DNA of 64,000 bases, from assembly GCA_040756875.1 (NCBI GenBank), contig JBFLYH010000001.1, forward strand, positions 1,024,001-1,088,000. Direction: 5' to 3'. The number at the start of each line of letters is the position of its first letter. Position 1 is the stretch's first letter. The DNA is from a candidate division FCPU426 bacterium. Its GTDB lineage: Bacteria; Oederibacteriota; JAAXVQ01; JAUVAV01. The notes under the pieces were generated by a model. The model searched no databases. It was given only the letters and a program-made list of their open reading frames with translations, and was not told the DNA's origin. Below are positions 1-17,105 of this stretch, piece by piece. The position numbers and the translations under genes were made by a program.

Positions 1-3000
1 AGATTTACGTTCGCGCCTTCTCCGGCCAGCACGTACGGTTGCACGGCGAAATCCGTCACCAGCGGCGGTTTACGGTCCACGATGATGCCGGCGATGGATT
101 CCATAACGCCCACATTACCCGCGTCATCCTCGGGCACGAGCATCAGGGTGTAAACGCCGTCCGGGATATTCATGAAGGGATTGGTCAAGTCCCAGGCAAA
201 ATAATTATTGGGATTGGTTTGGTAGATGGGCTCGTTATTTTCGTCCACATCCACCACGCGTCTATTTTGCGCATAAGCCCGTTGCGCGCCGTAGTAGGAT
301 AGGTTTTTTGTCTCGTTATACATCACGAATTTTACCGAGCAATCCCCATCCACCGAATATTTGACGTAAAAGCCGTTAAAATCATTGTTAACCCGGTTGT
401 CCGTGATCGGCGTTTGCGCCGTGTCCATTCTAAGCAGGGTCAGGCCGGGCAAAATCACCGGCGGCGTGAGGTCTATTTTAAAGGGTTTTGTCTGCCCGCC
501 CTGGTTCCCGGCTAAGTCCTTGGTTTCGACGACCAGCTCATAGTCGCCCGCAGCCACGAACATGGGATGGTCTCCGGAAGTTTTATAATCCCAGCTGAAC
601 AGGGCCGATCCAACGGAGCGGGTTTGCATGGTTTCGGAATAAACCGCGATATGATCCCCTGCGCGGCGTATCGTTATCCGCGTTTCGCTGAGCAAAGGCG
701 ACAGATTGTCGCTGATTTCATACCGCACCCGCAACCGTTCCGGCGCTTCAGGCGCCGTATGGGTGAAAGCCAGATTATCCGCCATTTTAATATCCACCAA
801 CGGAGCTTCGTCGTCAAAATAGAACCCCCAGGCGCTTTGGCTCTCCTTGCCCACCTCGTCTTTGGCTTTGATCAGGATGGTGTAGTAACCGTTGGATAGA
901 TCCGCTTCCTGCGCAGCCAGGCGGAAGGTCAGCTTTTCAGGGGTAACCGCAAGTACTTCGGCATCCAGGCTTTCCGCTTCGGCGGTCGCGGTGTTCACTT
1001 TCTGCAATGCAATGCCGATATTGCCAGCGGGTATATTATTGTTGATGTCCGTATTGTAAATAATGGCGGACATCACCGGGCGTTTTTCCCTGATAAAAGC
1101 CTCATACGTGGGATAATTCGGCGCGATCTGGATGGGCATCATGTCCAGATTGATCTGAAACACCTGCCTGGCGATTCCGCCATATTTGTTTTCCGCGACC
1201 AAGACCACGGTATTGATGCCCTCGAGCAGATTGATGGGCTTGTCTGCGGTGCTATACAATTGAAAGACTCCGTCTTCGGTAACCGGCGCTTCCCAGAAAA
1301 CTTCGTAGTTAAAGGACACCTTCAATTTGCAAAAAGCTACATTGCTGTCTTGAATGATCCCGCGCAGGCCTCGATAGGGTTTATCTATGCTGATGCGGCC
1401 TATATCCTGGACCTGTTGGTCTTTGGTCAGCATGTATAGCCCCACTCCCGGGTGGGTGCGGGGCGTTACGGCGCATTCATGCAAAGGTTTGCCGTTGATT
1501 TCAAGCCCGTAGATTTTTGGCCTTTCCATGGAAATGAGTTTGGCGATCTCTTCGCTGGCATTGGGGCCCGAGAAATGCCAGCCTTTGACTTCCACCTGCT
1601 TTTCTACCGTTTGCGGGGTTGATTTATTCAGTCCCATAAGCCGGCTCAGCGCCAGAGGCGAGCCTTCGGTTACGCCGTCCGTGTTGATGACATAATCCGT
1701 GGCAAGATAGGCCAGCGCCCCCACGATCACCGCGCCCGGAAGCCCGCCGGGGATATTAATGGATATGGAAGGTATCCATGAAATAAGTTTGTTAAGATCA
1801 GGCAGGTTTTGCAGGATAAATTCTTTGACATGATTGCGCAAGGGGATCTGGATTTTTTCGCGAAGCAGCAGGTCCACTTCGCTGTTGACCCAGCGGATGG
1901 GCATTTTGCGCAGGTCTTCCAGAGGAATGAACAGCATTTCGATTTCCTTGTCCAGTGCGGCATATAGCTGGTCCGCATCGCGCGTTTCCGGCATGGCGGT
2001 GATAATGGCTGATGTCTGATTGCCAACCACTGTGTTTATGTTGTTCTGTATATTGCTCACGGACGCAATCAGGCTGTTTATCCGGTTTTCTATTTCCACG
2101 GTGGGTATCCAATTGCGGATTTCGGCTGATATGGCGTTGCTGACCTTGTCCTTGGTTTGCGAACCAAAAGCGTTCTGTATGATTTTACCCACGTCGTTTT
2201 GCAAGGGATGGTTGATGAAATTATTCAGGTCATTGACGCTTCCCTGCTGTAATTGGCTTTTCAAGTCCTCAAGCGGCCCTCTAAACCATTCGGCCGCGGT
2301 ATTGGTCGGGTTGGTTATATATTTACTTACAAATTCATCCACGGTTTGAGCAACAACCTGTTTATAGGTGAGGAAATCCGTGCCGGTTCTGGCCAGCAGT
2401 TCCTGCATTCTGTTTCGCACCTCTTGCTTGACCGCATCTTTCAACCAGGCATCGTACATGAGCTGTTTTTCCGCGTTTTCCAACACTTCGTTGATTTTAT
2501 TCTTGATGGGCTTGAATACCGAGCGTTCCAGCTCCTCCTCCAGCTTGCTGGTAAGTATTTCCGCCACTTCTTCATTTAAATTGTTATAGGTTTTGCTTTT
2601 TAAATCGAATAATTTCACGCCGGTATATTGCCCGCTGGCTCCCAATGCTGCAAATCCCGCGACAATGATCACCTGAATTCCGGGGTCCATATCCGGCCAC
2701 AATCGTGTGACCACACTGGAGGTAGGTATATTTATATCCTCGGTGTTGAACTGGTTTAAGTCTTTCATGAAGTCCGAGCCTGACTGAAAGTTCCCGGCAT
2801 AATCAAAACGTCCCAGAGCTAGTCCGATGAGATTCAGGGGATTAATCACTAAATCGTTACGGTTGCTGGTGCGTAAAAACGATAAAAAACTCAAGTCAGG
2901 CCCGTATGCTCCCCAACGGTTTTCCAATTGAGTTAACAGGTTGTTCAACCCTAGTTTTTCGAGCCAGGGAACCACGGGCGAAAACAGCAGGTTTACGGCG

Positions 3001-6000
3001 TAGGATTGGGTCGCCATGGGAAGGCTGTTGACGCCATTCAAAGGAGTGCCGATAGTGACGAGTTTTGCGATCTTGTCAATGGGTGTATTTTCCTGCAAAT
3101 ATTTTTTCGCCAATATCCCGGCCTCGCCCCAGGCCATAATGGTGACTTTCTCAGTCCTGGATCTAATATAATTTTCAATTTGGTTCTTAATGGAATCCAA
3201 TTGCAGGTCAATGCTTCCCCATTTCTGTTCTCCATAGATATTGCCCATGCGAAAATCGATGCCGCTGTTTATTTCGCCCAGCCCGGAAAATATCCCGCCG
3301 ATGGAGCTCAAACTGCCGAAAAGGTTGCGCAAGCCGCCGAATTCAATCCCTCCCAGGGAAAAAAGGCTTGAAAGCATAAAATTGAGATTACTAGTGCCGC
3401 TGTTCTCCCTTATGTTTTGCGTGGTCGTGGCGTTTGTGTTGCTTTCATGAGTGGTTGCCGGTTGGTTTACATTGAAAGAATGGGTATTGTCGCTAACACC
3501 GTTTCCATAAGCGTTCTCGGCGTATATTTCAATTTGCACATCGCCGTAAACGTGGTTGCCTTGTTCATCTTCGGCGTTCCATTTAAACTTCAGGCTTTGA
3601 TCGCCGGCAACTTCCACATCAGGAACCGGCTTGCCTTGGGCCAGCATGTTCACCAGAGAACCCGAAGGCTTAAGGTACTTGAAGTACCAGGTTCTAAGCT
3701 GTCTTCCGTTTTGCACCAGCCGCACGTGCAGGCGGTATAAATAGTTCATGGAATCCGTGACGCGCAGGCTCATGAATTGCTGGGCTGCCGAGCAGGTAAT
3801 GCTCTCCGCGGGGGTGGCCGAAGTTTGTATAGTTTCATCGCTGAATTTGACTGTTTTTGCATAATTCTTGGTTTCTTCGTTGCCTGCCGCGTCCATAAAA
3901 GTGATTTTTGGGGCCAGGAGACTCTGCGTGCCGGTCAACCCGCTAAAATCCAGTTCAGCCGACCATTTGGTTTTTTCGTCCGTTGTATCGTCGTCCGCCT
4001 CTTGCACGGCATTGGCTTTAATCGAGATGCTCCCGTCGCTGTTTTTAACCTCGACCGACGGGGGCATTTCGGGGTTGATGTTCTTTTCTTCGATTTCGAA
4101 TTTGAATTTGTATTTGCGTTTGCCGAGAAGGTACTGGGTGTCCGCGGTGTCCACTTCCGTGTTGTTGCTGACGCCGTTGGTGTCGGTGGTGTTGTTGACG
4201 CGGGTTATTTGGAGAGGGGTGAGAATGGGTTTTATCAGGTCCACCGTCAGTTCATATCGCCCATAAGTATTGGCATCATTTGGAAGTATTTCGCCGCTGG
4301 CCGTGCTCCCGTTATTGTCGTCCCTCCGTGCCGTTAATATAATTTCCACTTTTACGCCATCCGCAAATCCCAAGGAAGCTATATTAATGGTTTTGCCCCA
4401 GGTAAAATAAGGTATTTCATCTTTAACCCTGGTTAAGTTTCTAATGGGAGATGGAGGGCCCAGGGGTTCCGGGGTCGGAGCCGGAGTGGGTGTGGGGGTT
4501 ATTCCAAATACTTGGGTTTTATAAAGGTTGTAGATTTGCTCATTCGCTTGGCTCATGTACTTCAACGGCAACAAACTATCCAAGGCCAAGGTGACTTCCT
4601 TGCCGTTATGATTGGTTATTTTAACCGTCGGTTTTTGCGGTTCCTTGTCGATTTTTCTGTTGAACTGCACGGCTAGTTTGAGGTCGTCGGAATTAATGCA
4701 GGCCTGGGAATCTGAAGTTTTAGTAAAATGGGGGGCGTTATTTACTTTATTCCAGGTGCCGTCTATAACATTTCGATATTTGTCATTTCTCGTCTGTTTG
4801 GCAATGAGCCGCTCGACTGTTACGTCTTTAGAGTTGTCTATATGGATATCATAAGTCTTTTTAAATATCTTTGAACCCCGAACGTTTTTAGCGACGATGA
4901 TGATTTTTCCGTCTTGAAGTTCGGCATTATTTGCAAGGTCTTGTATTTTAGGAACACTGTTACTTCGTCCAGTCCCTTGTGCATTCCAGAGATCATCTTT
5001 ATCCCATTCTGTATATAGGAAGATATCATTTCCACATGGTATTTTCTTAATACTTTCCTCACCCTTAGGAACATATTCATCTATCGGGTAAAATAATTGA
5101 TAATATCCCGTTTTATCCCAGCTTTTTGTATAGTATGTGCCGATACCGGTTATCGAATTATAACCTGATTCAATATTTGTATTTATTGGTGATCCGGGTG
5201 TATAGGGTGTTGTGGCAAGACTGGTAGGTTTTCCTCCAAAACTGAATTGCTGGATAAGATGCTCGTCATCTTCTTCATCATAATATATTTTGACTTCCTC
5301 TAGGTCCGATTGACCTTCCAGGACAGGGTCACCATACGAATTAATAAAAACTCTCAAATAATAACCTTGGAAATCTTCAGTAAAAATGGGAACAACTGGT
5401 CTTTGCCATTCATGATATTTACCATTTGCAAGTTTTTCACCTAATAATCTAACATCGTATTCGGTTTCTCGATGAGGAATATTAAACATAGGATTGATAT
5501 TTACTCCCAATCCAGAATCAATGTGCAAGTGGACTGGGTACTCCTTGCCTTCTAATACCCACGTTTCAATTCCATTAATTGTTTTTATCGTCCATCCACC
5601 TGAATTTCCAACCGCTCCGATCCAATTATGAGTCGGCAACATAAGCGTGTTTCTTGTAACCGCGGCAATTGTTGTTCCCTTTTGCATTACAAAAGAATCC
5701 AAATCGCTTGGATAACGCACCTTTATTTCCGCTACAGGCCCGATAATGTATTTTGCTTTTTTATTTTCTTTGTCATCCCATATAATAACAGTATTATTCT
5801 TATTAACGTCCTTTATAAAGGAAAATGCTGGGTCTGTATTATTGGTATTGTTAGTATCAATATAAAGGTAATTATTTGTTCCGTTATGTGTGATCCCGCC
5901 AATAATGTAAGGGGTATTCCCCTTGTATATATAATCATTATTAAATAAATGCAGGTAGCGATACTCTCTTTTCCTATCTTCAGAACGAACCCTTATGAAT

Positions 6001-6245
6001 ATCAAATTAGAATCCTCGTCTTGCTCAACTTGAAGCACCGTACAATTTTCCATAGTCTTTGCGCCGCGGCCTTCCGGAATAGGAAGATCAATTGCTTTGT
6101 GATAATCAGGTTTACTTCCCAATAACCGCGGACCAAAATCATCCGAGAATCTAGTGGCTATCGACTCAACCGAAATTGCTATACCAGAAAATATTAGTAA
6201 AACTAATATTGTTATGAGTAGTACTCCGATTGCCTTACGTACCAT
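1..6245 (-). CDS. Very large secreted protein (>2,080 aa, 3' end outside window): N-terminal M23 metallopeptidase, Ig/FlgD-like domains, degenerate alpha/beta-hydrolase domain
   Basis: Translated by hand because it is absent from the ORF track. ATG at 6245 gives MVRKAIGVLLITILVLLIFSGIAIS (signal peptide), then M23 motifs HKAID, YRYLHL, IGAVGNSG and VHLHI. Later come PTPTPAPTP, repeated D-x-AGN Ig-like motifs and a FlgD-like KFKWNAEDEQG. Frame checked at 3137 and at 59; I saw no stop codon down to position 1. Confidence 0.88.
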   Translation of the reverse strand, partial: MVRKAIGVLLITILVLLIFSGIAISVESIATRFSDDFGPRLLGSKPDYHKAIDLPIPEGRGAKTMENCTVLQVEQDEDSNLIFIRVRSEDRKREYRYLHLFNNDYIYKGNTPYIIGGITHNGTNNYLYIDTNNTNNTDPAFSFIKDVNKNNTVIIWDDKENKKAKYIIGPVAEIKVRYPSDLDSFVMQKGTTIAAVTRNTLMLPTHNWIGAVGNSGGWTIKTINGIETWVLEGKEYPVHLHIDSGLGVNINPMFNIPHRETEYDVRLLGEKLANGKYHEWQRPVVPIFTEDFQGYYLRVFINSYGDPVLEGQSDLEEVKIYYDEEDDEHLIQQFSFGGKPTSLATTPYTPGSPINTNIESGYNSITGIGTYYTKSWDKTGYYQLFYPIDEYVPKGEESIKKIPCGNDIFLYTEWDKDDLWNAQGTGRSNSVPKIQDLANNAELQDGKIIIVAKNVRGSKIFKKTYDIHIDNSKDVTVERLIAKQTRNDKYRNVIDGTWNKVNNAPHFTKTSDSQACINSDDLKLAVQFNRKIDKEPQKPTVKITNHNGKEVTLALDSLLPLKYMSQANEQIYNLYKTQVFGITPTPTPAPTPEPLGPPSPIRNLTRVKDEIPYFTWGKTINIASLGFADGVKVEIILTARRDDNNGSTASGEILPNDANTYGRYELTVDLIKPILTPLQITRVNNTTDTNGVSNNTEVDTADTQYLLGKRKYKFKFEIEEKNINPEMPPSVEVKNSDGSISIKANAVQEADDDTTDEKTKWSAELDFSGLTGTQSLLAPKITFMDAAGNEETKNYAKTVKFSDETIQTSATPAESITCSAAQQFMSLRVTDSMNYLYRLHVRLVQNGRQLRTWYFKYLKPSGSLVNMLAQGKPVPDVEVAGDQSLKFKWNAEDEQGNHVYGDVQIEIYAENAYGNGVSDNTHSFNVNQPATTHESNTNATTTQNIRENSGTSNLNFMLSSLFSLGGIEFGGLRNLFGSLSSIGGIFSGLGEINSGIDFRMGNIYGEQKWGSIDLQLDSIKNQIENYIRSRTEKVTIMAWGEAGILAKKYLQENTPIDKIAKLVTIGTPLNGVNSLPMATQSYAVNLLFSPVVPWLEKLGLNNLLTQLENRWGAYGPDLSFLSFLRTSNRNDLVINPLNLIGLALGRFDYAGNFQSGSDFMKDLNQFNTEDINIPTSSVVTRLWPDMDPGIQVIIVAGFAALGASGQYTGVKLFDLKSKTYNNLNEEVAEILTSKLEEELERSVFKPIKNKINEVLENAEKQLMYDAWLKDAVKQEVRNRMQELLARTGTDFLTYKQVVAQTVDEFVSKYITNPTNTAAEWFRGPLEDLKSQLQQGSVNDLNNFINHPLQNDVGKIIQNAFGSQTKDKVSNAISAEIRNWIPTVEIENRINSLIASVSNIQNNINTVVGNQTSAIITAMPETRDADQLYAALDKEIEMLFIPLEDLRKMPIRWVNSEVDLLLREKIQIPLRNHVKEFILQNLPDLNKLISWIPSISINIPGGLPGAVIVGALAYLATDYVINTDGVTEGSPLALSRLMGLNKSTPQTVEKQVEVKGWHFSGPNASEEIAKLISMERPKIYGLEINGKPLHECAVTPRTHPGVGLYMLTKDQQVQDIGRISIDKPYRGLRGIIQDSNVAFCKLKVSFNYEVFWEAPVTEDGVFQLYSTADKPINLLEGINTVVLVAENKYGGIARQVFQINLDMMPIQIAPNYPTYEAFIREKRPVMSAIIYNTDINNNIPAGNIGIALQKVNTATAEAESLDAEVLAVTPEKLTFRLAAQEADLSNGYYTILIKAKDEVGKESQSAWGFYFDDEAPLVDIKMADNLAFTHTAPEAPERLRVRYEISDNLSPLLSETRITIRRAGDHIAVYSETMQTRSVGSALFSWDYKTSGDHPMFVAAGDYELVVETKDLAGNQGGQTKPFKIDLTPPVILPGLTLLRMDTAQTPITDNRVNNDFNGFYVKYSVDGDCSVKFVMYNETKNLSYYGAQRAYAQNRRVVDVDENNEPIYQTNPNNYFAWDLTNPFMNIPDGVYTLMLVPEDDAGNVGVMESIAGIIVDRKPPLVTDFAVQPYVLAGEGANVN

Positions 6246-6261
6246 AATACACCCCATAAAA

Positions 6262-7125
6262 CTATTTTCCCAAAGGTCGGAAAACCTCATAATATTCATC
6301 TTTTTCCTGGTTGTATCTTTCAATTACAATAGTCCCATTATCTAATATCCGCGAAACATGATAATCAATTTGTCCAACATCATATTTATTGTGGTTTTTT
6401 AAGTTTTGAATTTTATAAGAATCTAGGTTTGCACCAGACCTAAATAATAACCATTCACCGTTGTCAGATATTCTGCTGAAATTTCTCGCTATTAGATTTT
6501 CTTCAATTTCTTTAATCACGTTTCCATCTTGATCCAGTACTGTTATTTTAGATAGTGGTGGTTTTTGTTTGACTTCCCAACTTACACCTTCAAGTATTGC
6601 GGGGCTTCCTTTGAAGCAAATTATATATTTCCCGTTTTCGGAAATATAAGTAGGTATGCCTTCAACCGTTTTAATGAAGTAGACCTTGCCAGTGGCATCT
6701 AAAAGGTTGACTTTATAGGTTTGCCGGGAATAATATCCGGTTTTGTAATGATAATCTGGAGGGACCATCCTGACATCCGCGACATAGAGAGCCATGAAGG
6801 TTTTGGGGTGGTTTAGAATGTATTCTGTAGTTACCCGTCTTTGCGTTTTCTCAGTCAAACCAATTTCCGCAGGCACTACAAAGGAATTGATGGTATTGCC
6901 TGCGTTATCATGAATATAAATGACATTTTCTCCAGTTTGTGCTTGGGAGCCGTTCGTAGATGCTGCGCTAACGCCGGCTTTTTTCTCCATCGTTACTTTT
7001 TCAAATGTTTTTATTTTTTCTTTATTATCCGTTTGTTCTTGAGCCTGAGTGCCCTGCGCCCAAACATATAACGGCGTCATCGCAAGGGTCATGGCGCAAA
7101 ATATTGTCATTGCCTTTTTCATCAT
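6262..7125 (-). CDS. Secreted hypothetical protein directly upstream of the giant M23 gene (candidate partner/immunity protein)
   Basis: 304-aa ORF in the track. Better start is ATG 7125 (MMKKAMTIF...VWA signal peptide) after a GGAGG RBS. The C-terminus has beta-rich ISENG/ISDNG repeats. Confidence 0.75.
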   Translation of the reverse strand: MMKKAMTIFCAMTLAMTPLYVWAQGTQAQEQTDNKEKIKTFEKVTMEKKAGVSAASTNGSQAQTGENVIYIHDNAGNTINSFVVPAEIGLTEKTQRRVTTEYILNHPKTFMALYVADVRMVPPDYHYKTGYYSRQTYKVNLLDATGKVYFIKTVEGIPTYISENGKYIICFKGSPAILEGVSWEVKQKPPLSKITVLDQDGNVIKEIEENLIARNFSRISDNGEWLLFRSGANLDSYKIQNLKNHNKYDVGQIDYHVSRILDNGTIVIERYNQEKDEYYEVFRPLGK

Positions 7126-7176
7126 CCCTGCCTCCTGTTGGTGTTGTTTCAATATCATAGTGATATTTCTAATCAA

Positions 7177-7884
7177 TTAATTCCTCTCCACTTTCCTATT
7201 CTCCATCACTATCCCGCTCGCAATATCCCCGCCTGGGGTGATGATGCGGGCGAAGATCTTTTTAGGAACCCACAAACCGCTTTTATTCTCATAGGTCATT
7301 TTAAATTGCATGGGTGGGATGGTCTCGAAGCCGATAAAATCTATCTGCGTTACCAGGCCCCGTTCTTTCTCAAATAGCACCTCTAAAGCTTTTACATTGC
7401 GCACGGTTTTTTCGTCCGCAATATTGCCTTCGGCGTCTTTCCTGTATCCAATTATTTTCACCAACCCGGACTGGGCTGGCTGGTTTTTCTCATCAATAAC
7501 CAAGTAAAATTGCTTGATAAAATGATAGTAATAAATATCGCTGTTCATGCCGGCAGTAGTTTCGCCTTGCTGTACCGGGCTGAAGGGTCCGCCGTTGATG
7601 CTTACCAGCACTTCGCCGCCGTTGATTTTGACTGTATTGTGACTGGGCTCGGTGAACTCCATTACAACCTGATTGGGGGCATTGTAAGTGTATTGCCCCT
7701 TTTGCTTGATTGTCAGGTCACCGACTCCAAATATTGACAGGCTGAAATCCGCTTCGATGGTTTTAACTTTATCTTGGTGGGCTTTTAGACTATCCAGCAG
7801 GCTTTGGCTGGTGGGTACATCGGCCCTGGCTGGCGCGCTGACCAACAGAGGGATTAGTATTACGAGTCCAAGATGCTTGTTCAC
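7177..7884 (-). CDS. LolA-like / outer-membrane lipoprotein-sorting family periplasmic protein
   Basis: Signal peptide ending ARA, followed by 'KVKTIEADFS...QKGQYTYNAPNQVVMEFTEP', a LolA-like pattern. Paralog at 19944-20651. Confidence 0.65.
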   Translation of the reverse strand: MNKHLGLVILIPLLVSAPARADVPTSQSLLDSLKAHQDKVKTIEADFSLSIFGVGDLTIKQKGQYTYNAPNQVVMEFTEPSHNTVKINGGEVLVSINGGPFSPVQQGETTAGMNSDIYYYHFIKQFYLVIDEKNQPAQSGLVKIIGYRKDAEGNIADEKTVRNVKALEVLFEKERGLVTQIDFIGFETIPPMQFKMTYENKSGLWVPKKIFARIITPGGDIASGIVMENRKVERN

Positions 7885-7980
7885 TTAAGCATCCCCCTTT
7901 TGTTCTAATTATTTAGACTGTTAAAACATTTTTTCCTTTTATCTTTTTTCATATTTTTTATACCCGCGAATAGTTTGTTT

Positions 7981-9579
7981 TCACGGGCGAACCAGTGCGA
8001 TTTTCCTTATTTTCAGAGCTCTTTCTCCACCGTCTCCTTTGATCTTGGTTCGCACCAGGTAGATGCCCGGTGCAATTCCTTCACAATCCCAGGCTACTGT
8101 CGCGGTTCCCGAGGCGTTCACTTGCTCCCTGATTTCAGCGACCTTAGTACCGGTTATGTTATAGATTGTGATTTCGACCTCCGCATCTTCAGCCACATTT
8201 ATGAGGAAACTCATGCGCTCTGTGGCGGGGTTCGGATAGGCGAGCACTTCGTCATTACCTACGAGTGCTGGCGGCGTATTTGTCGGCGTGATCGTCCGCG
8301 TGGGCGAGATAGTATAGGTGGGGGTAATCGTTGGGGTCGGGGTATGGGTGGGGGTTATGGTAGAAGTTGGAGAAATAGTCGAGGTGGGGCTGATGGTCGA
8401 GGTGGGAGAAATGGTAAAAGTGGGGGTAGGCGTAGGGAAAATGTAATGTTTGACGTAATCTCGTACAATAGCCCCGTCATCTTCTGGCCAAACGGCATAT
8501 GGTCTGCCAAATCCATCAATACAAAATGCACCGGCATACGCTTTTTCATTTAAATTAAAGTTTAACTCTCCTCCATCTCGAATCCAATTTACCCCATCGA
8601 AATGTTTTACATAATTGAATTGATCAGGCGTATGCGTTTCGGTCCAAAATACAAAAGGTGTATTGTTATAAACCTCAATATTGGGTCGACCAGCATTTTT
8701 ACTTGAGTCTACATTCAAACTCCCACCCAATTGCTCCCACGACGCGCCATTGTAGCGTTCGCAATAGATGTGCCAGATATATGGCGGACCTACTACCCCC
8801 TGATAGGTAACATAGGGAGTTCCATTATCTATATCAATCGTTGGATATTCTGCGCTTCCGGCATTGTTCAATGCACCTCCCAATGCAATCCAATCCGCGC
8901 CGTTATAGTACCTTACCCTGGTCCTCCCCAGGCCTTCTTGGTAGGCAACATAGGGTGTATTATTATCCATAGCAACATCCGCGTTATACACTCCCTCGCC
9001 CACGCCATTAACATAGCTCGAACCCACCTGTTCCCAATCCGTTCCATTATATTTTTTCATGTACGCTTTGCCGAGCTCAACCCAGACCACATAGGGTGTG
9101 TCATTGTAGCCCGCGATGTTGGGCACGGTTCCATCCGTGCTAGGTGTAAGGTTGAGATAGCTGCCTCCCACTTGCTCCCAATCCGTGCCGGTGTACTTCT
9201 TGACGTAAACCAGATTGGTGTTCCCACCTGCCTCGGCCCAGGCCACATACGGCGTGCCGTTCAAAATGGCAATATCCGGCGTATCCGCATCCATGGCCGG
9301 GTTCATGTTCAAGCTGCCTCCCAATTGCGTCCATTGAATGCCGTTGTAGCGTTTGACGTAAACCTGGTACGCCGAGCCGTTGCTCTCTTTCCAGGTGACG
9401 TACGGCGTTTCGCCGTCCGCGGCTATGCGCGGATAATAGGCGTTTTGGCTGGGATTGATGTTCAGGCTGCCATTGGGTCCGATATCTCCGTCCAATACCC
9501 AATCAGCATGTGCGGTTGCAGAGGCAAATAACAATAACGGCAGAACCAGGCGCCATGATCTTGGCATGGTCATTCGCAT
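7981..9579 (-). CDS. Secreted 7-repeat beta-propeller (lectin-like) with Pro/Thr linker and T9SS type-A/FlgD-like C-terminal domain
   Basis: Signal peptide (AHA); seven ~50-aa repeats W-x-Q-x-GGSLN...TPYV-x-W-x-E...YVK; PT/ISPT linker; C-terminal YPNPA...IYNITG...WD...GIYL. Confidence 0.85.
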   Translation of the reverse strand: MRMTMPRSWRLVLPLLLFASATAHADWVLDGDIGPNGSLNINPSQNAYYPRIAADGETPYVTWKESNGSAYQVYVKRYNGIQWTQLGGSLNMNPAMDADTPDIAILNGTPYVAWAEAGGNTNLVYVKKYTGTDWEQVGGSYLNLTPSTDGTVPNIAGYNDTPYVVWVELGKAYMKKYNGTDWEQVGSSYVNGVGEGVYNADVAMDNNTPYVAYQEGLGRTRVRYYNGADWIALGGALNNAGSAEYPTIDIDNGTPYVTYQGVVGPPYIWHIYCERYNGASWEQLGGSLNVDSSKNAGRPNIEVYNNTPFVFWTETHTPDQFNYVKHFDGVNWIRDGGELNFNLNEKAYAGAFCIDGFGRPYAVWPEDDGAIVRDYVKHYIFPTPTPTFTISPTSTISPTSTISPTSTITPTHTPTPTITPTYTISPTRTITPTNTPPALVGNDEVLAYPNPATERMSFLINVAEDAEVEITIYNITGTKVAEIREQVNASGTATVAWDCEGIAPGIYLVRTKIKGDGGERALKIRKIALVRP

Positions 9580-9660
9580 CTCGACCCCTCGGCTGATGTA
9601 GTAGATGGCGAGGTTTTAAGTATAGCACATCTTCCCTTGCCCATCAAATTAGGCACCCCC
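9576..9660. repeat. 85-bp direct repeat, copy 1 (promoter + RBS + start codon of the propeller gene)
   Basis: Matches 15672-15756 with a single mismatch. Confidence 0.95.
9619..9647 (-). promoter_or_regulatory. Putative sigma70 promoter TTGATG-17-TATACT with extended -10
   Basis: On the minus strand: TTGATG GGCAAGGGAAGATGTGC TATACT, then a GAGGGG RBS before ATG 9579. Confidence 0.7.
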
Positions 9661-10659
9661 GTTTGGGGGACGTTGTTTAAATGTCAAAATGTCAGGTTGG
9701 CACCGGCAATACGCTTCGCCCCGCCTAATTAAATAAGCTGCCCCAGCTCGGGTCATCCCCAACTGTTTGCCGATCTCCTGGCCATTGATGCAGCATTCCA
9801 TTTTTAATAAATAAGCCAGAACCGCCTTGGCATCGCCAGCCCGATGGCTTTTCCACTTCTCCTTTAGCTGATGCTGATCGATCCGAAAATAATCGCAAAC
9901 CATTTGTATCATCTTCTCCACAAGCCGTTCGGATCGAATGCCCACACCGCTTTGGCTTCCTCTTGGCTCTTCCAGAACCTCTGCCACAAACCAGCTCTCA
10001 CCCAAAATCCGTTCGTCCCCCATTTGATCGCCGTCTGTCCCTGTTTGCCACCCCTTTTGGCTTCTCCGCAAGCCGCCGCCCTCGAGCTCCTCACGCGCCC
10101 CCTTCGTTTCTCCTTCTCGGATGAATTCCATGTACTTTCCTCTAGCTCGGCCCTCGGTTCGGCCGAAGTACCGCAAAACATCCACTACTGCCTGCCACTC
10201 CCTAGAACGATTGCCGATCAGCGCCGCATGGCCCGTCCAGGGATAGCGGCCCAGTTCCTTAATGTCCGCCACGAGGCCGGCACGTACGGGATTGAGGTGG
10301 ATATATCGGACCAATTCCAAAAAGTATCTTTCTTTCTGACACAAGATGGAACGATATCGATTTTGAAACAGATGCCCCGCCCTTTTATGACGTCGGTTGA
10401 AATAGATGGCATAACCAGTCAACAGCGAATGCAGAAATGGCGTCAGCGGCGTGCCGGCAGGAGAGAGGAGGAGGTGAACATGGTTGGGCATAAGAACCCA
10501 AGCATAACACTTGATCTGATGGGCTATTAAACCTTCGGCCAAGCGGTGGACAAAAGCCATCCTGTCTTTATTATCTGCGAAGACACGGCGGCGTTCAATG
10601 CCGCGGACCATGATATGATAGAGCCCGCCAGAAATGTGGATACGACCTTGTCGAGGCAT
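9649..10659 (-). CDS. HUH/Y1 tyrosine transposase (REP-associated/RAYT-like, IS200 superfamily) with C-terminal DnaA_C-like HTH
   Basis: MPR...YHIMVRGIERR, HUH motif LMPNHVHLLL, GHLFQNRY, Y1 motif YIHLNP, YPWTGH, and a C-terminal helical HTH-like segment. Confidence 0.9.
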   Translation of the reverse strand: MPRQGRIHISGGLYHIMVRGIERRRVFADNKDRMAFVHRLAEGLIAHQIKCYAWVLMPNHVHLLLSPAGTPLTPFLHSLLTGYAIYFNRRHKRAGHLFQNRYRSILCQKERYFLELVRYIHLNPVRAGLVADIKELGRYPWTGHAALIGNRSREWQAVVDVLRYFGRTEGRARGKYMEFIREGETKGAREELEGGGLRRSQKGWQTGTDGDQMGDERILGESWFVAEVLEEPRGSQSGVGIRSERLVEKMIQMVCDYFRIDQHQLKEKWKSHRAGDAKAVLAYLLKMECCINGQEIGKQLGMTRAGAAYLIRRGEAYCRCQPDILTFKQRPPNGGA

Positions 10660-10732
10660 ATATCTTTCGACCCGGCCGCCAGTTTTTCCATGCGTTTTAT
10701 TTTACTCATTTTGACATCTATACAACGTCCCC
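9666..10732. mobile_element. Y1-transposase element 1 bounded by 26-bp terminal inverted repeats
   Basis: Left 9666-9691 is GGGGACGTTGTTTAAATGTCAAAATG; reverse complement of right 10707-10732 is GGGGACGTTGTATAGATGTCAAAATG (2 mismatches). Confidence 0.85.
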
Positions 10733-12506
10733 ATTCACTTTTCAGCCCTTCTTCGGTTTCTCCATTCCATAGAAATGTAAGAAGCTTCCCTTGGTTGCCA
10801 TCCGAAACAGTCACGGTTCCTGTGTTAGTGCCGGCTTCAGGGAAAGCCACTGTAGCCTGATTGGAGTCATAATTGATTTTCCAGTCAAATAAGGAAGGCC
10901 AGTCTGTATTGGTGGCCGTCCCCACCTTGAAAGCGGCTTCGATGTTAAGAATGCCCTGCGGAGAGCCGGGAAATTCGACGGTGAAGATGGGTTTGTGGGG
11001 GGAAAAAGAGTACGAACCAAATAATACTTTTACGAACATGGTTAAAAGAGATTTATAGCTTACCTTCGTATTTAAATTGTGATTATTTACTAGCGGATTA
11101 CCAGCTGTGTCATTTGCATCGCCGACAACTATATAATATTCATCATCACCAAGCAAATTATCTTCGGCATTGAAGCTGGCTATCCATGTATCCCTGGAGT
11201 ATTTTGTTTTCTTAACAGAAGAATAAATAAGGTCAACCGGATTTTGCCCAAGGATGGCAGATAATGCACTACCTCTTACGGCAACGCGTATCTGCGGGTC
11301 AGGATTTTCATCCATTTCTTCTGAAAATACCACTTCCACTTCTGCCGCACCCTTGGAAATAGGGTTATTGGCCAATAATTCGATGTTTTCACCTTGTATA
11401 CCCGTAAATCGAGCGTGATATTTTAGTTTTTGGGATTGCTTAATCTTAATCCATTTAATGTATGGGCGGAAATTATCTACGATCACTTCCGCTTCGGCGG
11501 TTCTAGTGCGGGCAGCTATATCAGCAGTAATAACTCGAACTAGATATTTTCCATCCGGATATTGGGCATCGTCATTAATTTGCGCTTCTAGCATTAATCC
11601 CGCCTGATGTTCTTCAGGTGTTAATTCTTTGCGATTTGTCGGCCAATATTTATTTGGTTGGTTTAGACTAAAAGGATCCTTTGATACCCAATAAACTTGA
11701 TCAGAAGCATAAACATAGTTAAAGTTTCTTTCCCCAGCATTACTACCTGTCGCCCCGCCCGGGAGATCATCAAATCTAATTTCGGGAAATTCAATGATTT
11801 TAGTATTCCCTTTAAGTACTTCGCATTTTAAGTAATATAGACCTACTCTATTCGAATTATGTCCCCCCAGAGAGTCATAAGCAGGTATTTTTATATCAAC
11901 ATTACCGTTAAGATGAGGAAAATGAACCTCACTGTAATCATCATGCGGCAAGAATCCTATTTGGTTGCCGTAGGAATAGGATTGTATGCTGATATTTCCT
12001 GTATCCAGAAAGCCATCAAGGCCATCTGGGCGAAGAGGATTATAATAGCATTGCGAGTCTTTTTCGGTTAAGTGGAGGTGGGAAGTCCATCCAATTGTAT
12101 TTAGCTTTTTTAAGTATCCTATAACTTCTCCAGCAGTTATTTTTTCATTCTCGATTAAATCAATATTATTTTGAATATGGACATAAAATAAATCTCTTCC
12201 TCCAATACTGATTAAACGTACCGTCTCATTATCGGAACCCACTAAATATTTTGTAAATCTACCATCCTCAACAGCGCAAACCGTGGTTCCAATGTCACCA
12301 TCACTAGCCGCCGCATTAATATCGATACCAGTATGTAAATGCCCAGGGCGATATTCACCCAAAGTTGCAGAAATATATTGAATTGTATTGTTTTCGTCAT
12401 CAATGGTTCCAGAGCCATTTGAATCGAGCGGCCAATAATAAGCATTAGCTATTCTACCCAGAATAGCAGTAGTAAACAGGATAATTAAATGACTACATTT
12501 TTTCAC
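10527..12506 (-). CDS. Secreted M23 peptidase with Ig-like domains, apparently truncated at 10733 by element 1 (last ~68 codons read through the element)
   Basis: Signal peptide (ANA); M23 motifs HTGID, FYVHI, SHLHL. After the FlgD-like LTFLWNGETEEG the frame enters the inverted repeat and overlaps the transposase start in another frame. Confidence 0.8.
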   Translation of the reverse strand: MKKCSHLIILFTTAILGRIANAYYWPLDSNGSGTIDDENNTIQYISATLGEYRPGHLHTGIDINAAASDGDIGTTVCAVEDGRFTKYLVGSDNETVRLISIGGRDLFYVHIQNNIDLIENEKITAGEVIGYLKKLNTIGWTSHLHLTEKDSQCYYNPLRPDGLDGFLDTGNISIQSYSYGNQIGFLPHDDYSEVHFPHLNGNVDIKIPAYDSLGGHNSNRVGLYYLKCEVLKGNTKIIEFPEIRFDDLPGGATGSNAGERNFNYVYASDQVYWVSKDPFSLNQPNKYWPTNRKELTPEEHQAGLMLEAQINDDAQYPDGKYLVRVITADIAARTRTAEAEVIVDNFRPYIKWIKIKQSQKLKYHARFTGIQGENIELLANNPISKGAAEVEVVFSEEMDENPDPQIRVAVRGSALSAILGQNPVDLIYSSVKKTKYSRDTWIASFNAEDNLLGDDEYYIVVGDANDTAGNPLVNNHNLNTKVSYKSLLTMFVKVLFGSYSFSPHKPIFTVEFPGSPQGILNIEAAFKVGTATNTDWPSLFDWKINYDSNQATVAFPEAGTNTGTVTVSDGNQGKLLTFLWNGETEEGLKSEWGRCIDVKMSKIKRMEKLAAGSKDICLDKVVSTFLAGSIISWSAALNAAVSSQIIKTGWLLSTAWPKV

Positions 12507-13783
12507 TGTGAATACCTAATTTTATGTATGAGATATTGATCACTATTCGATGCATTTCCATATAAATAAATGGTTTTATGAATAGGTTGTACTATGAGCT
12601 GAATATAATCATAATTCATTTTTAGTTTACTTCTTATTTCGCCAAATTCAATTATTTGTGTTTTTCCATCTTTTACAATTATTCTCGATCTTTTCCGCTC
12701 CAAATATACTAAACCACTAAGTAAATCGTTCTCTGAAAACATAAAATAATAATTTCCTGGTCTTTCTAAATCAACTTGATCCATTAATTCCCCATTTGAA
12801 TTAAGAAACAATACTTTTTGATCTGGCCGTCCATCACTTTCATACTTAGGCAACTTATTTAATTTGAGAATGTGCATTTTGTCATATCGTGATTCCCCAA
12901 TGACGGTTCCGCAATAGTATCCAGATATCGGCAATGTCTTGCGTAGTATTTCTTTGCCATTCTCATCCCATTTCACTAACTCTGGTTTTTTACTTCCTAT
13001 AACACCAACAATAATATTGGTTTTTTCAGAAATAGCATAGATTGGTTCTGGTATTGTATAATCGCTTGTTTGCAATCTTATAGTTGATGTGTCGCCGCTT
13101 CTGCTTACAATGGAAAAAGAGCTGCCTCCACCTGCAAATTGTTCGAAATCAATAAGTTTATTTTCTGATAAAGGTTGCACTCTCCCAAACATTCTCGGTT
13201 CTGGCTTCCATAGCTCATTCCCTTGATCGTCATACACTGTCGCCTGCCAGGGTACAGACATGTTTTTTTCCGATTCATATTCAGTCAATTCCCTCACCGG
13301 CATGCCGACGATGATATATTTATTGTCTTCTGATTTGCCCATAAAGATTAATCCTGGTATCTCTTTAGTAACCTGCCCCGAATAGTTCATGATCCGAATT
13401 AGACGGTTAAGTATAACCACTTTAGGATAAATAATTCTTTTCGTGTTTTGTTGGCCATTGGTTTCTAGCACATAAGCTGTTTGGGGAACGTCGTCATTTA
13501 TACCAATTTCGCTTTCACCCCATATCACCCTCTCCGCTCCTGGAAACTCCTTCTCCCACACCTTCTCCACCTTCACCTTCTCATCCTCATATATCACCAC
13601 CGGTGGTTTGAGGGTGCCGGCGTCCGCGAGGGTGGGCAGGGTTGAAACTACTGCTGCGGCGGTGACAACTGCTGTGGCTGTGGCGACTGCGGTGGCGGTG
13701 GCCACTGCGGTGCTAGTGCCCATGCCAAAAGCGGGGTTGATGATTAGAATGCTTGCGATGAAAGACAGAATGGACTTTTTCAT
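12503..13783 (-). CDS. Secreted hypothetical beta-rich protein coupled to the M23 gene (candidate partner/immunity protein)
   Basis: Signal peptide MKKSIL...AFG and a TAVATA low-complexity linker. Its stop overlaps the downstream GTG start (GTGA, 12503-12506). Confidence 0.75.
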   Translation of the reverse strand: MKKSILSFIASILIINPAFGMGTSTAVATATAVATATAVVTAAAVVSTLPTLADAGTLKPPVVIYEDEKVKVEKVWEKEFPGAERVIWGESEIGINDDVPQTAYVLETNGQQNTKRIIYPKVVILNRLIRIMNYSGQVTKEIPGLIFMGKSEDNKYIIVGMPVRELTEYESEKNMSVPWQATVYDDQGNELWKPEPRMFGRVQPLSENKLIDFEQFAGGGSSFSIVSRSGDTSTIRLQTSDYTIPEPIYAISEKTNIIVGVIGSKKPELVKWDENGKEILRKTLPISGYYCGTVIGESRYDKMHILKLNKLPKYESDGRPDQKVLFLNSNGELMDQVDLERPGNYYFMFSENDLLSGLVYLERKRSRIIVKDGKTQIIEFGEIRSKLKMNYDYIQLIVQPIHKTIYLYGNASNSDQYLIHKIRYSQ

Positions 13784-13919
13784 TGGTGTTTTAAGCTCCT
13801 TTTTCACTGGATTTGACTGCGGTTTCGTGGGTAATGGCGTTGATGTAGCAGCAATGGTTGTCCATATCCAGCCATTAAATTAGACAGGCATTAACATATT
13901 TCCATGCTATTTTTTAAAC

Positions 13920-13994
13920 GTCATTTCGGCATATTAAGCCGGAATCCAGTAACTTGATTTTCCTGGACCCTAGTTACAAATACACCGGGATTAC
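13920..13994. repeat. Degenerate REP-like palindromic element
   Basis: GTCATTTCGGC-ATATTAA-GCCGGAATCCAG...CTGGACCC...CACCGGGATTAC resembles GTCATTCCGGC...GCCGGAATCCAG-type REP doublets. Lies just after the stop of 14002-15675. Confidence 0.5.
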
Positions 13995-14001
13995 GTCAAA
14001 T

Positions 14002-15675
14002 TCACTTCACAATCGCCAGCTTCTGCCTGCCTGCTGACTTCCCATTCAATCTAATATCCGCCAAATAAATTCCCGGGCTGATACTGTCTGTTTTCCATAT
14101 CATTGTCTGCCCACGGCCGGCGGGAAGATTCTCGTTAACCTTAGCCACCAAGTCTCCGGTTATGCTGTATATCACGATCTCGACTTGGGCTGGTTCAGTA
14201 AGGTGTATCAGGAAATTCACCTGATCCCTGGCTGGGTTGGGGTACACCAATGCCGCTTTGCCGCCCAATTCCACACTGGCCAATGATCGCGTTTGCGTGG
14301 CAGTTGGCGAGACCGTAGCAGTTGGAGTAATGGTGCTGGTTGGGGTTATGGTGGGCGTTATGGTAAAGGTGGGCGAATGGGTATAGGTTGGCGAATGTGT
14401 AGGTGTAGGTGAATATGTCGGCGTTATCGTAGGAGTAGGAGAAATAGTGGGTGTGGGAGTGATAGTCAGAGTTGCGGTGTGAGTGGGAGTGTATGTCGGC
14501 GTTGGAAGAACATAGAATTTGCAATAGATTTTATTAATTGTGGCGGACTCTTCGGACCAAACAACATATGCAGTGTTATCAACAAATTCGAGTGCCGAGT
14601 TAAACACACGCGTATCATAATTAGGATCAATATTGAGACTCGAGCCATCCTGAATCCATTCCGAACCATCGAAGTGCTTCATAAATAAGTGTCGGATATT
14701 AAATATTTGCCCAACAACATACTTCATTTCATAAAATAATACATACTGAATATTATTAATGACTTTGATGTCTGTTGGATAGGCATCCTTATCCGATTCA
14801 ATATTTAAGATACTTCCATCTTGTAACCATTCACTCCCATTATAATGTTTAACATAAATTTGGTAATCACCAAAATAAGCTTCAGTCCAAGTCACATAAG
14901 GCGTGCTGCTATATACCGCAATATGCGGACCATTAGCAGACTGATTTAAATTATAATTCAGCGCCCCCCCTACTTGTTCCCAAGTTGTACCATTTATTTT
15001 TTTGACATATATTTTGAAATCTTCCATCCACGTAACATATGGTGCCGAAGCAATTGAAATGATATCTGGATAATAAGCAGAAACGTTCCCGTCTAAATTC
15101 AACATCCCCCCATCCTGCTCCCAAGCGTTCCCATTCCAATGCTTCACAAGAATGTGATACGCAGTCACGGCATCTTCATGCCAGGTCACATAGGGCGTGG
15201 CACCATCCATGGCAATCGCCGGATAATCCGCAAACTTGGCCGGATTGACATTCAGGCTTCCGCCTAGTTGCTCCCAACTTGTGCCATTGAGGTATTTCAA
15301 ATAGACTTGCCGGGTGTTCCCTTGGTCTTCAGCCCACACTACATACGGAGTGCCGTTGTAGGCTGCAATCGCCGGATTATATGCGCTTTCCGCCGTATTG
15401 ACGTTGAGGCTTACTACCGAACCGCTGGCATGCACCCAAGATACGCCATCGTTCTTCTTGACGTAGATCTGATTTTTGCCCGAAGCATTCTCCTCGCTCC
15501 AGACTACAAACGGCGTGTTATTGGATACAGCAATATCTGGATTAGTGGCATTATGAGTGGGGTCCACATTGAACACGCCGCCGTCTTGCACCCAATCGGC
15601 GCGTGCAGTTGAGGAAATGATTACAAGAGCCAGAAAGAACAACAAACGCGTCGTGCTTAGCTTAGCCCGATGCAT
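14002..15675 (-). CDS. Secreted 7-repeat beta-propeller with Pro/Thr linker and T9SS type-A/FlgD-like tail (paralog of 7981-9579)
   Basis: Signal peptide (ARA), seven W-x-Q-x-GG-x-LN repeats, long PT/SPT linker, YPNPA...IYSITG...GIYL tail. Confidence 0.85.
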
Positions 15676-15756
15676 CTCGACCCCTCGGCTGATGTAGTAG
15701 ATGGCGAGGTTTTAAGTATAGCATATCTTCCCTTGCCCATCAAATTAGGCACCCCC
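15672..15756. repeat. 85-bp direct repeat, copy 2, with promoter TTGATG-17-TATACT (15715-15743, minus strand)
   Basis: Matches 9576-9660 with one mismatch. Confidence 0.95.
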
Positions 15757-15772
15757 ATTTTCCTTTCCCTCC

Positions 15773-16873
15773 GGGGCTGGAGTCAACTTATCAACTTAAG
15801 CTTTTGTTCCTCCGCAACCTTCTCTCCGACTTTGATCAACTTTGCCAGCGCTGTGCTCGATATTTTCAGATACCGGGCGACTTCCGCACTGCTATAGCCA
15901 AGCTCTTTGCATCCCCAATAACCTATCAGCCCTTTGGCAAACGATATGGTGTTTCTTCTTCCTTTTTTCCCCAACTCCGATTTATCCACCCCCGTAAGCT
16001 CACATGCCCTTTCAACCAGTCGTTCCATCGTCCAACCTCCACGACGATTCTTTTCTTTCCTATTCATCTCTTCTTCCGCTCGTTTTAATACTTCCACAAC
16101 AAACTGGTCATCGCCCAAAATCAACTCCTGCCCGCGCCAAGTATTTCGGACATTATTTTCTTCTGTTTGACTCCTCCAGTCGTTCTCTTTCCGTTTTAAA
16201 TTGCCCCGAGTGAGTTCTGCACGTTTGCCTTGATCCCAACCCTCGCGAATATATTGGCGATAGGCTCGGATTGCGTCTGCTCTTTTAGCACTGAATGGTG
16301 ACAATACTTCCCCAGTGGTTTGCCATGAATTTCTCATTGTTCCGATAAGCGTTGCATGCCCGGTCCAGGCGTATCTATCCAATTCTTTCAAGTGTTTGAT
16401 TATTCCGGCACGCACGGGATTTAAATGAATATACCGGACCAGTTCCATCAAATACCCGCTCTCCTGACAGAGGATGGACTTAAATCTATTTTGGTACAAA
16501 TAGCCGCGCCGTTTATGCCGCCGGTTGAAATGAGCCGCATAGCCTGCCAGAAGCCTTTGCATGAATTCGCTCAATGATTTTTCGGATATTCGCAGGAGGA
16601 GGTGGATATGATTGCTCATCAATACCCAGGCATAACAACGGCACTTATAAAGGCACAGGTTTTCAGATAGTCTTTTTACAAATTCACTTCGATCGGCAGT
16701 ATCCATAAATAGCGCAGTGCCATTGATCCCGCGGGTGATGACATGGTAAATTGCCCCAGGCAGGTTGATTCTCTTTTGTCTGGCCATATTCATTTAGACT
16801 GCCATTTTAATATTTCCATTCACCTCCTGAGAATGATTCGGCTTTCTTAAGTTGATAAGTTGACTCCGGCCCC
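15773..16873. mobile_element. Y1-transposase element 2 bounded by 28-bp terminal inverted repeats
   Basis: Left 15773-15800 is GGGGCTGGAGTCAACTTATCAACTTAAG; reverse complement of right 16846-16873 is GGGGCCGGAGTCAACTTATCAACTTAAG (1 mismatch). Confidence 0.85.
15783..16793 (-). CDS. HUH/Y1 tyrosine transposase (RAYT-like) with C-terminal HTH, diverged paralog of 9649-10659
   Basis: YHVITRGIN, LMSNHIHLLL, YQNRFKS, YIHLNP, YAWTGH. The stop codon lies inside the left inverted repeat. Confidence 0.9.
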   Translation of the reverse strand: MNMARQKRINLPGAIYHVITRGINGTALFMDTADRSEFVKRLSENLCLYKCRCYAWVLMSNHIHLLLRISEKSLSEFMQRLLAGYAAHFNRRHKRRGYLYQNRFKSILCQESGYLMELVRYIHLNPVRAGIIKHLKELDRYAWTGHATLIGTMRNSWQTTGEVLSPFSAKRADAIRAYRQYIREGWDQGKRAELTRGNLKRKENDWRSQTEENNVRNTWRGQELILGDDQFVVEVLKRAEEEMNRKEKNRRGGWTMERLVERACELTGVDKSELGKKGRRNTISFAKGLIGYWGCKELGYSSAEVARYLKISSTALAKLIKVGEKVAEEQKLKLIS

Positions 16874-16885
16874 TTTCATTAACCT

Positions 16886-17105
16886 TTCACCACGAAGAGA
16901 ACCTCAAAACCCCTCACCACGAAGACACGAAGGGCACGAAGGAGGACTTGGGTTAAACATTTTCAACCTTTAAGCCTCAATACCCTTCATCACGAAGCCA
17001 CGAAGGGTACGAAGGAGGACTGAGGTTAAACATTCACACCCATTCAAACCATAATACTCCTCACCACAAAGACACGAAGCACACGAAGGAGGGCTAGGGT
17101 TAATA
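16886..17105. repeat. Tandem ~73-bp repeats with internal CACGAAG periodicity
   Basis: Units start at 16914, 16987 and 17061 with core TCACCACGAAGACACGAAGGGCACGAAGGAGGACTTGGGTTAA and divergent spacers. A partial unit starts at 16886. Confidence 0.85.

Follow-up and report, generated by a model that had tools for sequence, protein, structure and literature searches.

Two TIRtron-type elements beside two probably old copies of a secreted-protein operon, with one probable recent promoter patch, in a low-GC island of a groundwater bacterium

The locus considered here lies in a 64,000-nt stretch of DNA (the window; G000:C1:1024001-1088000, where G000 is the source genome of 3.22 Mb in 7 contigs) from a groundwater-metagenome bacterium that uses a type IX secretion system (T9SS). 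The GC content of the genome is 60.2%, and that of the window is 34-54% at positions 1-20000, passes through a transition of 53-55% at 20-24 kb and is about 58-69% over the remainder; the locus is part of a low-GC flexible island. Two modules follow one another here on the minus strand, and in each of them a Y1/HUH transposase-type gene framed by terminal inverted repeats (TIRs) is followed by an 89-nt block, a beta-propeller gene, one or two genes for exported partner proteins and a gene for a protein with an M23-type head. A preliminary description of this DNA had reported the module order as occurring twice and had read it as possibly a transposase-driven system that shuffles and diversifies secreted proteins. 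The repetition was recovered for the gene order, the Y1 genes, the block and the propellers, but the partners and the M23 proteins of the two modules have no detectable mutual similarity.

The two Y1/HUH genes were recognised by profile matches on the minus strand and encode 336 aa each: TIRYT-A (15783..16793) with a Y1/HUH domain and a C-terminal helix-turn-helix (HTH), and TIRYT-B (9649..10659) with a Y1/HUH domain and a DnaA_C-like HTH. Against Pfam model PF01797 (Y1_Tnp; cut-off 23), TIRYT-A scored 43.5 bits and TIRYT-B 42.5 bits, and against NCBIfam model NF047646 (REP_Tyr_transpos) both came just below the cut-off of 80, with 75.6 and 79.8 bits respectively; with the IS200 model NF033573 the Y1 proteins reached 16.2 bits, far below its cut-off of 55. 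In the HTH region, TIRYT-B matched PF08299 with 26.9 bits (E 4.8e-06), under the gathering score of 31.5, and the C-terminus of TIRYT-A gave a weak HTH_17 match and a match to a DnaA model. The HUH motif N59-H60-x-H62 and the catalytic Y119 are invariant in an alignment of 15 homologous sequences. Pairwise comparison gave 42% identity between the two proteins, each of which is present in a single copy, and they are the sole two such genes in the genome. By these features a TIRYT protein is a predicted nuclease-ligase for single-stranded DNA, of the RAYT-like Y1/HUH type, that ends in a DnaA-like HTH.

Each gene and its framing repeats are referred to below as TIRtron-A and TIRtron-B, after the published class with which they are compared. 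In TIRtron-A, the upstream arm of TIR1 (16846..16873, minus strand), which consists of GGGGCCGGAG, two units of TCAACTTA and AG, pairs with a downstream arm (15773..15800, plus strand) that overlaps the TIRYT-A stop codon (pair I1 of the inverted repeats; 28 nt, 96% complementary, 1045 nt apart). In TIRtron-B, the upstream arm of TIR2 (10707..10732, minus strand), built from GGGGACGTT, GTATAGAT GTCAAAAT and G, pairs with a downstream arm (9666..9691, plus strand) within the 3' end of the TIRYT-B open reading frame (ORF) (inverted-repeat pair I2; 26 nt, 92%, 1015 nt apart). Together with the Pfam Y1_Tnp matches, these pairs bear out the preliminary description of two transposase genes bounded by inverted repeats. 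Searches of the source genome and its relatives for the repeat families found, with at most 5 mismatches, 6 dispersed copies of TIR1 and 22 of TIR2 in the genome, with unrelated flanks, and TIR1- and TIR2-like sequences at 1-3 copies in a few relatives; reversed control patterns gave none. As single-stranded DNA the TIRs form no stable hairpin (z -0.8 to +0.9 versus shuffles), and inspection of both elements revealed no target-site duplication at the TIRtron ends.

Homologues of TIRYT were present in 30 of the 41 genomes searched, the source genome included, and at least 548 stretches from many phyla encode a TIRYT relative at about 38-51% identity. In one genome of the same genus (G001), two TIRYT genes, each with 55-56% identity to TIRYT-A, are separated by 9 kb. 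Framing by inverted repeats was seen at 6 of 8 loci of relatives and at 50 of 62 loci from other phyla (those with at least 150 nt of flank), where most heads read (G)GGGACG. The repeats of the clade share a GGGG head of the (G)GGGACG type, followed by two tandem sub-repeats of about 8 nt that differ between families, such as TCAACTTA TCAACTTA in TIR1 and, by reading of the sequences, GTTAAAAT GTTAAAAT in a relative; these sub-repeats are possible docking sites for the DnaA-like HTH. The same pattern of a head with tandem sub-repeats was seen at 9666-9691 and 15773-15800 of the window, at loci L004, L006, L007, L009 and L012, and at many of loci L034-L113.

Several known kinds of element invite comparison. 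The RAYT/REP systems (REPtrons) of gamma-proteobacteria comprise a single-copy domesticated Y1 transposase flanked by short repeats, which it is thought to spread; they were reportedly treated by Nunvar in 2010, by Bertels and Rainey in 2011 and by Ton-Hoang in 2012. The elements described here resemble them in having a single-copy Y1 gene with a flanking repeat family and in having REP_Tyr_transpos as the best NCBIfam match; however, the repeats are not palindromic hairpins and lack a GTAG tag, the scores lie just below the family cut-off, the proteins are about twice as long, and repeat copies number in the tens rather than the hundreds. Membership of the RAYT family (NF047646) was rejected on the score below 80 and the repeats without hairpins. 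With IS200/IS605 elements they share the Y1/HUH catalytic domain (Pfam Y1_Tnp), but the genome does not hold multiple identical copies, the ends are inverted repeats and not subterminal hairpins, and the protein has an extra HTH tail; this membership, too, was rejected, on the 16.2 bits against 55 with NF033573 and the one copy per gene.

The preliminary description had not recognised the arrangement as a described system; its Y1 elements bounded by inverted repeats correspond to the TIRYT/TIRtron class, as presented in the consulted portions of two papers (PMC3733652, PMC6006769). TIRYT genes within 'TIRtrons' were described there as RAYT-like genes flanked by TIRs with a GGGGWSAS head, and some of these TIRs constitute moderately abundant families whose members stand singly, as dimers or in clusters (Di Nocera, De Gregorio & Rocco 2013, PMC3733652); Quentin et al. 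(2018, PMC6006769) later assigned the group, which has tails of the Bac_DnaA_C/HTH kind, to subclass 2.1. The likeness to TIRtrons, as far as these portions of the papers extend, comprises a RAYT-like Y1/HUH protein longer than the classic RAYTs with a C-terminal Bac_DnaA_C/HTH-like tail, GGGG-headed terminal inverted repeats that frame the gene and overlap its 3' end, and for each gene its own repeat family of moderate size (singles, pairs and clusters), with several different genes per genome being possible. The elements differ from TIRtrons as published there in their heads, which are GGGGACGT and GGGGCYGG and not an exact GGGGWSAS (GGGGACGT fits this motif at 6 of 8 positions, and GGGGCCGG/GGGGCTGG at 5-6 of 8), in standing as a tandem pair 6 kb apart, in having the same 89-nt block after each one, and in their host, an uncultured T9SS-bearing groundwater bacterium. 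Because of the Y1 domain, the HTH tail, the non-hairpin GGGG-headed framing repeats, the single gene set against dispersed repeats and the published description, both Y1 elements are, judged from sequence features, new members of the TIRYT/TIRtron class.

Downstream of each TIRtron lies the 89-nt block (repeat family D6, 98% identity), of which copy A (15672..15760, minus strand) ends at the ATG of the propeller gene propA, and copy B (9576..9664, minus strand) ends at the ATG of propB and holds the stop codon of TIRYT-B. The preliminary description had noted a near-identical promoter block of 85 bp (84/85) before both propellers, and this was confirmed over a slightly greater length, the copies being identical at 87 of 89 positions (BLAST E 7.5e-39 versus the genome). 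The edges of the block are sharp: the flanks align at chance level and are unique on all four sides, and the copies start 1 nt (copy B, after TIR2) and 12 nt (copy A) from a repeat end. Both copies contain TTGATG, a spacing of 17 nt and TG-TATACT (extended TG), a leader of about 35 nt, a GAGGGG Shine-Dalgarno site six nt ahead of the ATG, and a terminal ATGC; a promoter scan matched copy A at 15743..15715. The block would thus supply the propeller gene with a predicted sigma-70-like promoter, and it holds the leader, the ribosome-binding site and the start codon of that gene. A structured RNA or riboswitch in the block was considered and rejected, given a fold no better than shuffles (z +1.06) and no match to Rfam families at E up to 1 in positions 1-20000 of the window.

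In the genome the block occurs exactly twice. Fuzzy searches, for which three sub-stretches and at most 7 mismatches were used, gave these two copies and chance matches, so that the block was rejected as a member of a dispersed repeat or of a third terminal-repeat family; searches for relatives of the block by head motif found nothing related. The block was found in 0 of 60 relatives, the same genus included (E up to 0.001), and metagenome contigs contained no match to a 29-mer taken from it; on these two results, the block was judged not to be deeply conserved. Purifying selection acting from the old duplication onwards cannot explain 98% identity beside saturated flanks, and the block is absent in relatives; a recent non-reciprocal copy is therefore the economical reading. 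As read from the sequence, this 89-nt patch is the only recent event at the locus.

The block leads into propA (14002..15675, minus strand; 557 aa), which is predicted to encode a signal peptide, a PDIAV-motif beta-propeller, a Pro/Thr linker and a T9SS type A C-terminal domain, and into its paralogue propB (7981..9579, minus strand; 532 aa). The two proteins are 39% identical over 524 aa (E 3e-91). Their T9SS sorting domains score above cut-off with PF18962 (35.4 bits for propA and 39.8 bits for propB) and TIGR04183 (32.7 and 34.7 bits). Both carry a PDIAV-type repeat, for which the NF053835 PDIAV match in propA is weak, and the ESM Atlas model of propA aligns with BNR-type propeller clusters at TM 0.57-0.67. 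About nine paralogues of the propellers occur in the genome.

In module A the partner is p434 (12503..13807, minus strand; 434 aa, GC 0.40), an exported protein of unknown family without a Pfam or NCBIfam match or a paralogue in the genome; in module B there are two, p304 (6262..7176, minus strand; 304 aa, GC 0.38), likewise exported and of unknown family, and a LolA-like exported protein of 235 aa (7177..7884, minus strand). Signal peptides were found by inspection in the partners and in both M23-headed proteins. No significant similarity was detected between p434 and the 304- and 235-aa proteins (BLASTP E 0.25 and 0.75). The preliminary description had listed a LolA-like gene in this module; the gene is there, but the scores for the name, 29.1 bits with NF053544 against a cut-off of 125 and 21 bits with TIGR00547 against 112, are far below cut-off, and 'LolA-like' is to be taken as a lead only. 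This protein has a 46%-identical paralogue at window positions 19944-20747.

The M23 proteins, which the preliminary description had placed at the end of both modules, fared unequally. The exported protein M23_659 (10527..12506, minus strand; 659 aa), a putative M23-type peptidase with an Ig-like region, is borderline with PF01551 (cut-off 28.7; 26.6 bits over the full length and 28.8 bits when the first 200 aa alone are scored) and has the zinc motifs HTGID, YVH and HLH (HxxxD, H, HxH) by inspection; its best solved relative is a LytM-like protein, a weak match at E 0.11, and its Atlas neighbours are M23 clusters with scores of 0.83-0.87, which are leads only. These structure-neighbour clusters often have a T9SS sorting domain, and M23_659 is without one. 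A near-length search of a 5.8-billion-protein collection found M23_659 itself alone among 8000 scored candidates, and no relative was found in metagenome contigs, so that these searches yielded no strain or species variant of the locus. In module B the head belongs to a 7689-aa exported protein (3..6323 of the window, minus strand, by ORF extent; G000:C1:1007254-1030323), whose first 2107 codons lie in the window. This head reaches 12.2 bits with PF01551 (E 0.22), with motifs HKAID, YLH and HLH by inspection, and about 130 residues separate the central His from HxH, far more than in M23_659. After the head follow Ig-like (Big_13, Big_3), FlgD_ig, PA14, PKD-like and NHL domains and CHU_C-like stretches, and the protein is probably a giant surface adhesin. 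The two M23-headed proteins could not be aligned by BLASTP.

Taken together, the parallel gene order is real, but these comparisons demonstrate a duplication for three of its parts only, namely the Y1 genes, the 89-nt block and the propellers. The preliminary description had called the proteins strongly diverged, which agrees with the 42% identity of the Y1 proteins and the 39% of the propellers; the duplicated proteins being merely 39-42% identical, the duplication is old. The reading that we prefer, with a probability of roughly 60%, is that two TIRtrons stand beside two copies of a secreted-protein operon that diverged long ago, one promoter patch having been copied between them recently. 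Each operon copy would encode a T9SS-secreted PDIAV beta-propeller, one or two exported partners and a surface protein with an M23-type (LytM-like) head. The 89-nt patch would have been copied recently from operon to operon, by gene conversion or another non-reciprocal repair that we infer, in an event for which the adjoining repeat end may have been the seed; after such a copy, both operons would now start from the same expression signals. The transposases would most likely maintain their own repeat families, as neighbours of the operons and not as their drivers.

Several points weigh against this reading. The mechanism and the direction of the patch copy are what we infer, and the flanks of the block do not have the shared homology that normally seeds RecA-type conversion. 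With the block 1 and 12 nt from the repeat ends, the transposase or the repeat may have taken part. The consensus promoter scan gave 29 sites versus 20.7 in shuffles, and it used a sigma-70-type consensus, which may not be that of the host lineage. Homology of the partners and of the M23 heads is undemonstrated in these comparisons, so that 'duplicated operon' would be secure for the propeller genes alone. Furthermore, a T9SS cargo gene lies in the stretch of 5 of the 12 TIRYT loci from relatives (stretches of 2.3-26 kb), and in a family-level relative (G008) a low-GC PDIAV propeller/T9SS cargo gene is located about 500 nt downstream of TIRYT on the same strand. The locus of that relative (L114, G008:C8:70001-90000, positions 7644-10670) lacks the 89-nt block and has neither an M23 gene nor a partner gene. 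In a set of 80 loci from other phyla there was one sorting-domain match and no relative of propB, M23_659, p434, p304 or the LolA-like protein. The association of TIRYT with T9SS cargo hints at something non-random, and we would read it as co-residence in the flexible DNA of T9SS-rich genomes, though it may also reflect a functional link.

A first alternative, which generalises the idea of the preliminary description, is accretion at the repeats, in which the TIRYTs would cut and rejoin DNA at their terminal repeats and paste foreign cassettes and patches such as the 89-nt block there, thereby building and reshuffling low-GC islands; we consider this unlikely. Of the 28 repeat copies, 22 lie in 4-kb genome windows with a GC content below 0.52, which make up 8.75% of the genome, but AT-rich repeats may simply persist better in AT-rich, dispensable DNA. 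Three islands hold solitary repeats between successive genes or gene pairs with a GC content of 0.29-0.60, and in G001, of the same genus, one TIRYT gene is adjoined by a similar array, with solitary repeats placed between accessory genes; however, the orientation of the repeats relative to neighbouring genes is not uniform and is opposite in the island on contig C3. The M23_659 ORF runs without a stop before TIR2 and through it, its last ~68 codons being TIR2 and the 5' part of TIRYT-B in another frame, and it looks as if its original 3' end had been replaced by the TIRtron. Of the 26 repeated segments located in low-GC windows, nine have an end no more than 15 nt from the edge of a repeat. 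A first enrichment estimate from these, 9 observed against 0.38 expected, was rejected as too generous, given that both features cluster in low-GC DNA and that six of the nine segments merely contain a repeat. Three segments adjoin a repeat that they do not contain, where 0.18 would be expected (P 0.008, with low-GC clustering controlled); this controlled result is suggestive for duplications ending at repeats, but the three segments represent two events only.

The solitary-repeat islands, which have the look of cassette arrays, are at G000:C1:108-114 kb, C2:195-202 kb and C3:156-168 kb, and their genes include BrnT/BrnA and HigB/HigA-like pairs, GNAT, a DUF1016-YhcG nuclease, DUF4238, an FRG-domain protein, Fic and T9SS cargo. 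Further neighbours of repeat copies are reverse transcriptases with a SLATT protein and a type I restriction subunit. The reverse-transcriptase genes beside TIR2 copies (GC 0.28-0.31) are at G000:C3:159953-163344, where two are adjacent, and at C1:1274757-1276904, next to a gene for a SLATT_5 protein; these very low-GC genes are likely to encode defence-associated reverse transcriptases. A 466-nt tandem duplication with 98% identity, each unit of which ends with a TIR2 copy, was observed at G000:C1:1273194-1274131.

An extension of the accretion idea, which we find improbable, would make the TIRYTs and their repeats an HUH-based accretion machinery and a functional analogue of the integron, with the repeats as joints for foreign low-GC cassettes and promoter patches. 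If that were true, the cassettes would be toxin-antitoxin pairs, defence genes and T9SS cargo operons, and the sub-repeats would be docking sites for the HTH. As an analogy only, the islands resemble integron cassette arrays in having short repeats between small accessory genes (toxin-antitoxin, acetyltransferases) in a variable region and an enzyme that acts on DNA via a tyrosine nucleophile; they differ in that the enzyme is an HUH Y1 protein and not an IntI-type recombinase, the repeats are 26-28 nt long and do not resemble attC, the arrays of this genome lie apart from the enzyme gene, and capture events were not seen. A literature search for terminal repeats as cassette joints found nothing.

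One public run contains the locus and is possibly the source sample; it is stored as contigs, and no RNA run is listed. Neither the locus nor the contigs of this run showed a junction variant, an empty site or a target duplication, which speaks against accretion, and the contigs contain no alternative joints at the block or the TIRtrons, although they break at the block and would miss rare rearrangements. One listed joint skips 40 nt at 16941-16982, inside a 73-nt tandem array, and the contig matches in short pieces only. The module proteins are old paralogues and not products of recent shuffling. The preliminary description had proposed that transposase-driven shuffling diversifies the locus, and this is not supported, given old paralogues and the 89-nt patch as the sole recent event; what would have spoken for a plain old duplication was found in part only, as the relatives do not have a fixed arrangement, the repeats are concentrated in low-GC islands and a few local duplications end at a repeat. 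For accretion at repeats these are weak, circumstantial hints.

Rather doubtful, in our estimate, is the proposal that TIRYT has become a domesticated regulator that binds the downstream repeat via its DnaA-like HTH and controls the block promoter of the adjoining operon. The -35-like hexamer does follow the end of the downstream repeat by 19 nt in module B and by 30 nt in module A, which gives the repeat an activator-type position, two tandem sub-repeats of about 8 nt like an HTH binding site were read in every repeat family examined, and TIRYT and a propeller gene are co-directional twice here and once in G008. The invariant HUH and Tyr catalytic residues, however, argue for a working nuclease, 79 of the 80 loci from other phyla have no T9SS cargo or propeller within 3 kb, which points to a family without a fixed target gene, and the promoters are identical even though each enzyme would bind a repeat of its own.

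A recombination switch, in which the 89-nt direct repeats would serve as crossover sites and the unit propA-p434-M23_659-TIRtron-B would be deleted or amplified with a change in the secreted set, is very improbable: the repeats are 98% identical, 6096 nt apart and in equivalent positions before both propeller genes, but a length of 89 nt is poorly suited to frequent homologous recombination, either crossover outcome keeps the same promoter, and the contigs of the one run fit the two-copy layout and none joins across the 6.1-kb unit, although contigs would miss rare variants. Hardly credible is an assembly artefact, with the second block copy or the module order arising from a mis-join at a short repeat. 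In its favour, the genome is metagenome-derived, independent contigs from the one run end at the block, and the pairing of propeller and TIRtron cannot be phased across it with 31-mers. Against it, the two copies of the block show two differences and each of their four flanks is unique, contig depth is even across the region (48-63), the 89-nt repeat is shorter than ordinary reads, and the locus sits on a 1.6-Mb contig.

Upstream of the modules, window positions 17880-20747 hold a gene for a 616-aa protein with DUF6340 and an outer-membrane beta-barrel and a second LolA-like gene (19944-20747). Among 5 family members, the flanking 616-aa protein and M23_659 gave weak partial matches only, with no clear M23_659 orthologue; by these comparisons the locus is poorly conserved. 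A 73-nt tandem repeat of 2.8 copies (16900..17103) abuts TIR1, and its units belong to a dispersed intergenic repeat family of about 75-125 nt with three CTTCGTG motifs. Further copies of this family are at G000:C3:165685-165887, 168029-168216 and 175412-175665, among others, and one copy abuts a TIR2 copy at C3:165894.

Under the preferred reading of two TIRtrons beside an old operon duplication, the striking 'cassette' look of the locus would be a known element class plus an old duplication, and not a novel diversification system. The 89-nt patch would be a clean natural example of expression signals copied between old paralogues, and not a new system. For the function of TIRYT/RAYT-type domesticated transposases, this genome offers a compact case, with two enzymes and two small repeat families whose copies lie mostly in flexible low-GC DNA, for which few substrates would suffice.

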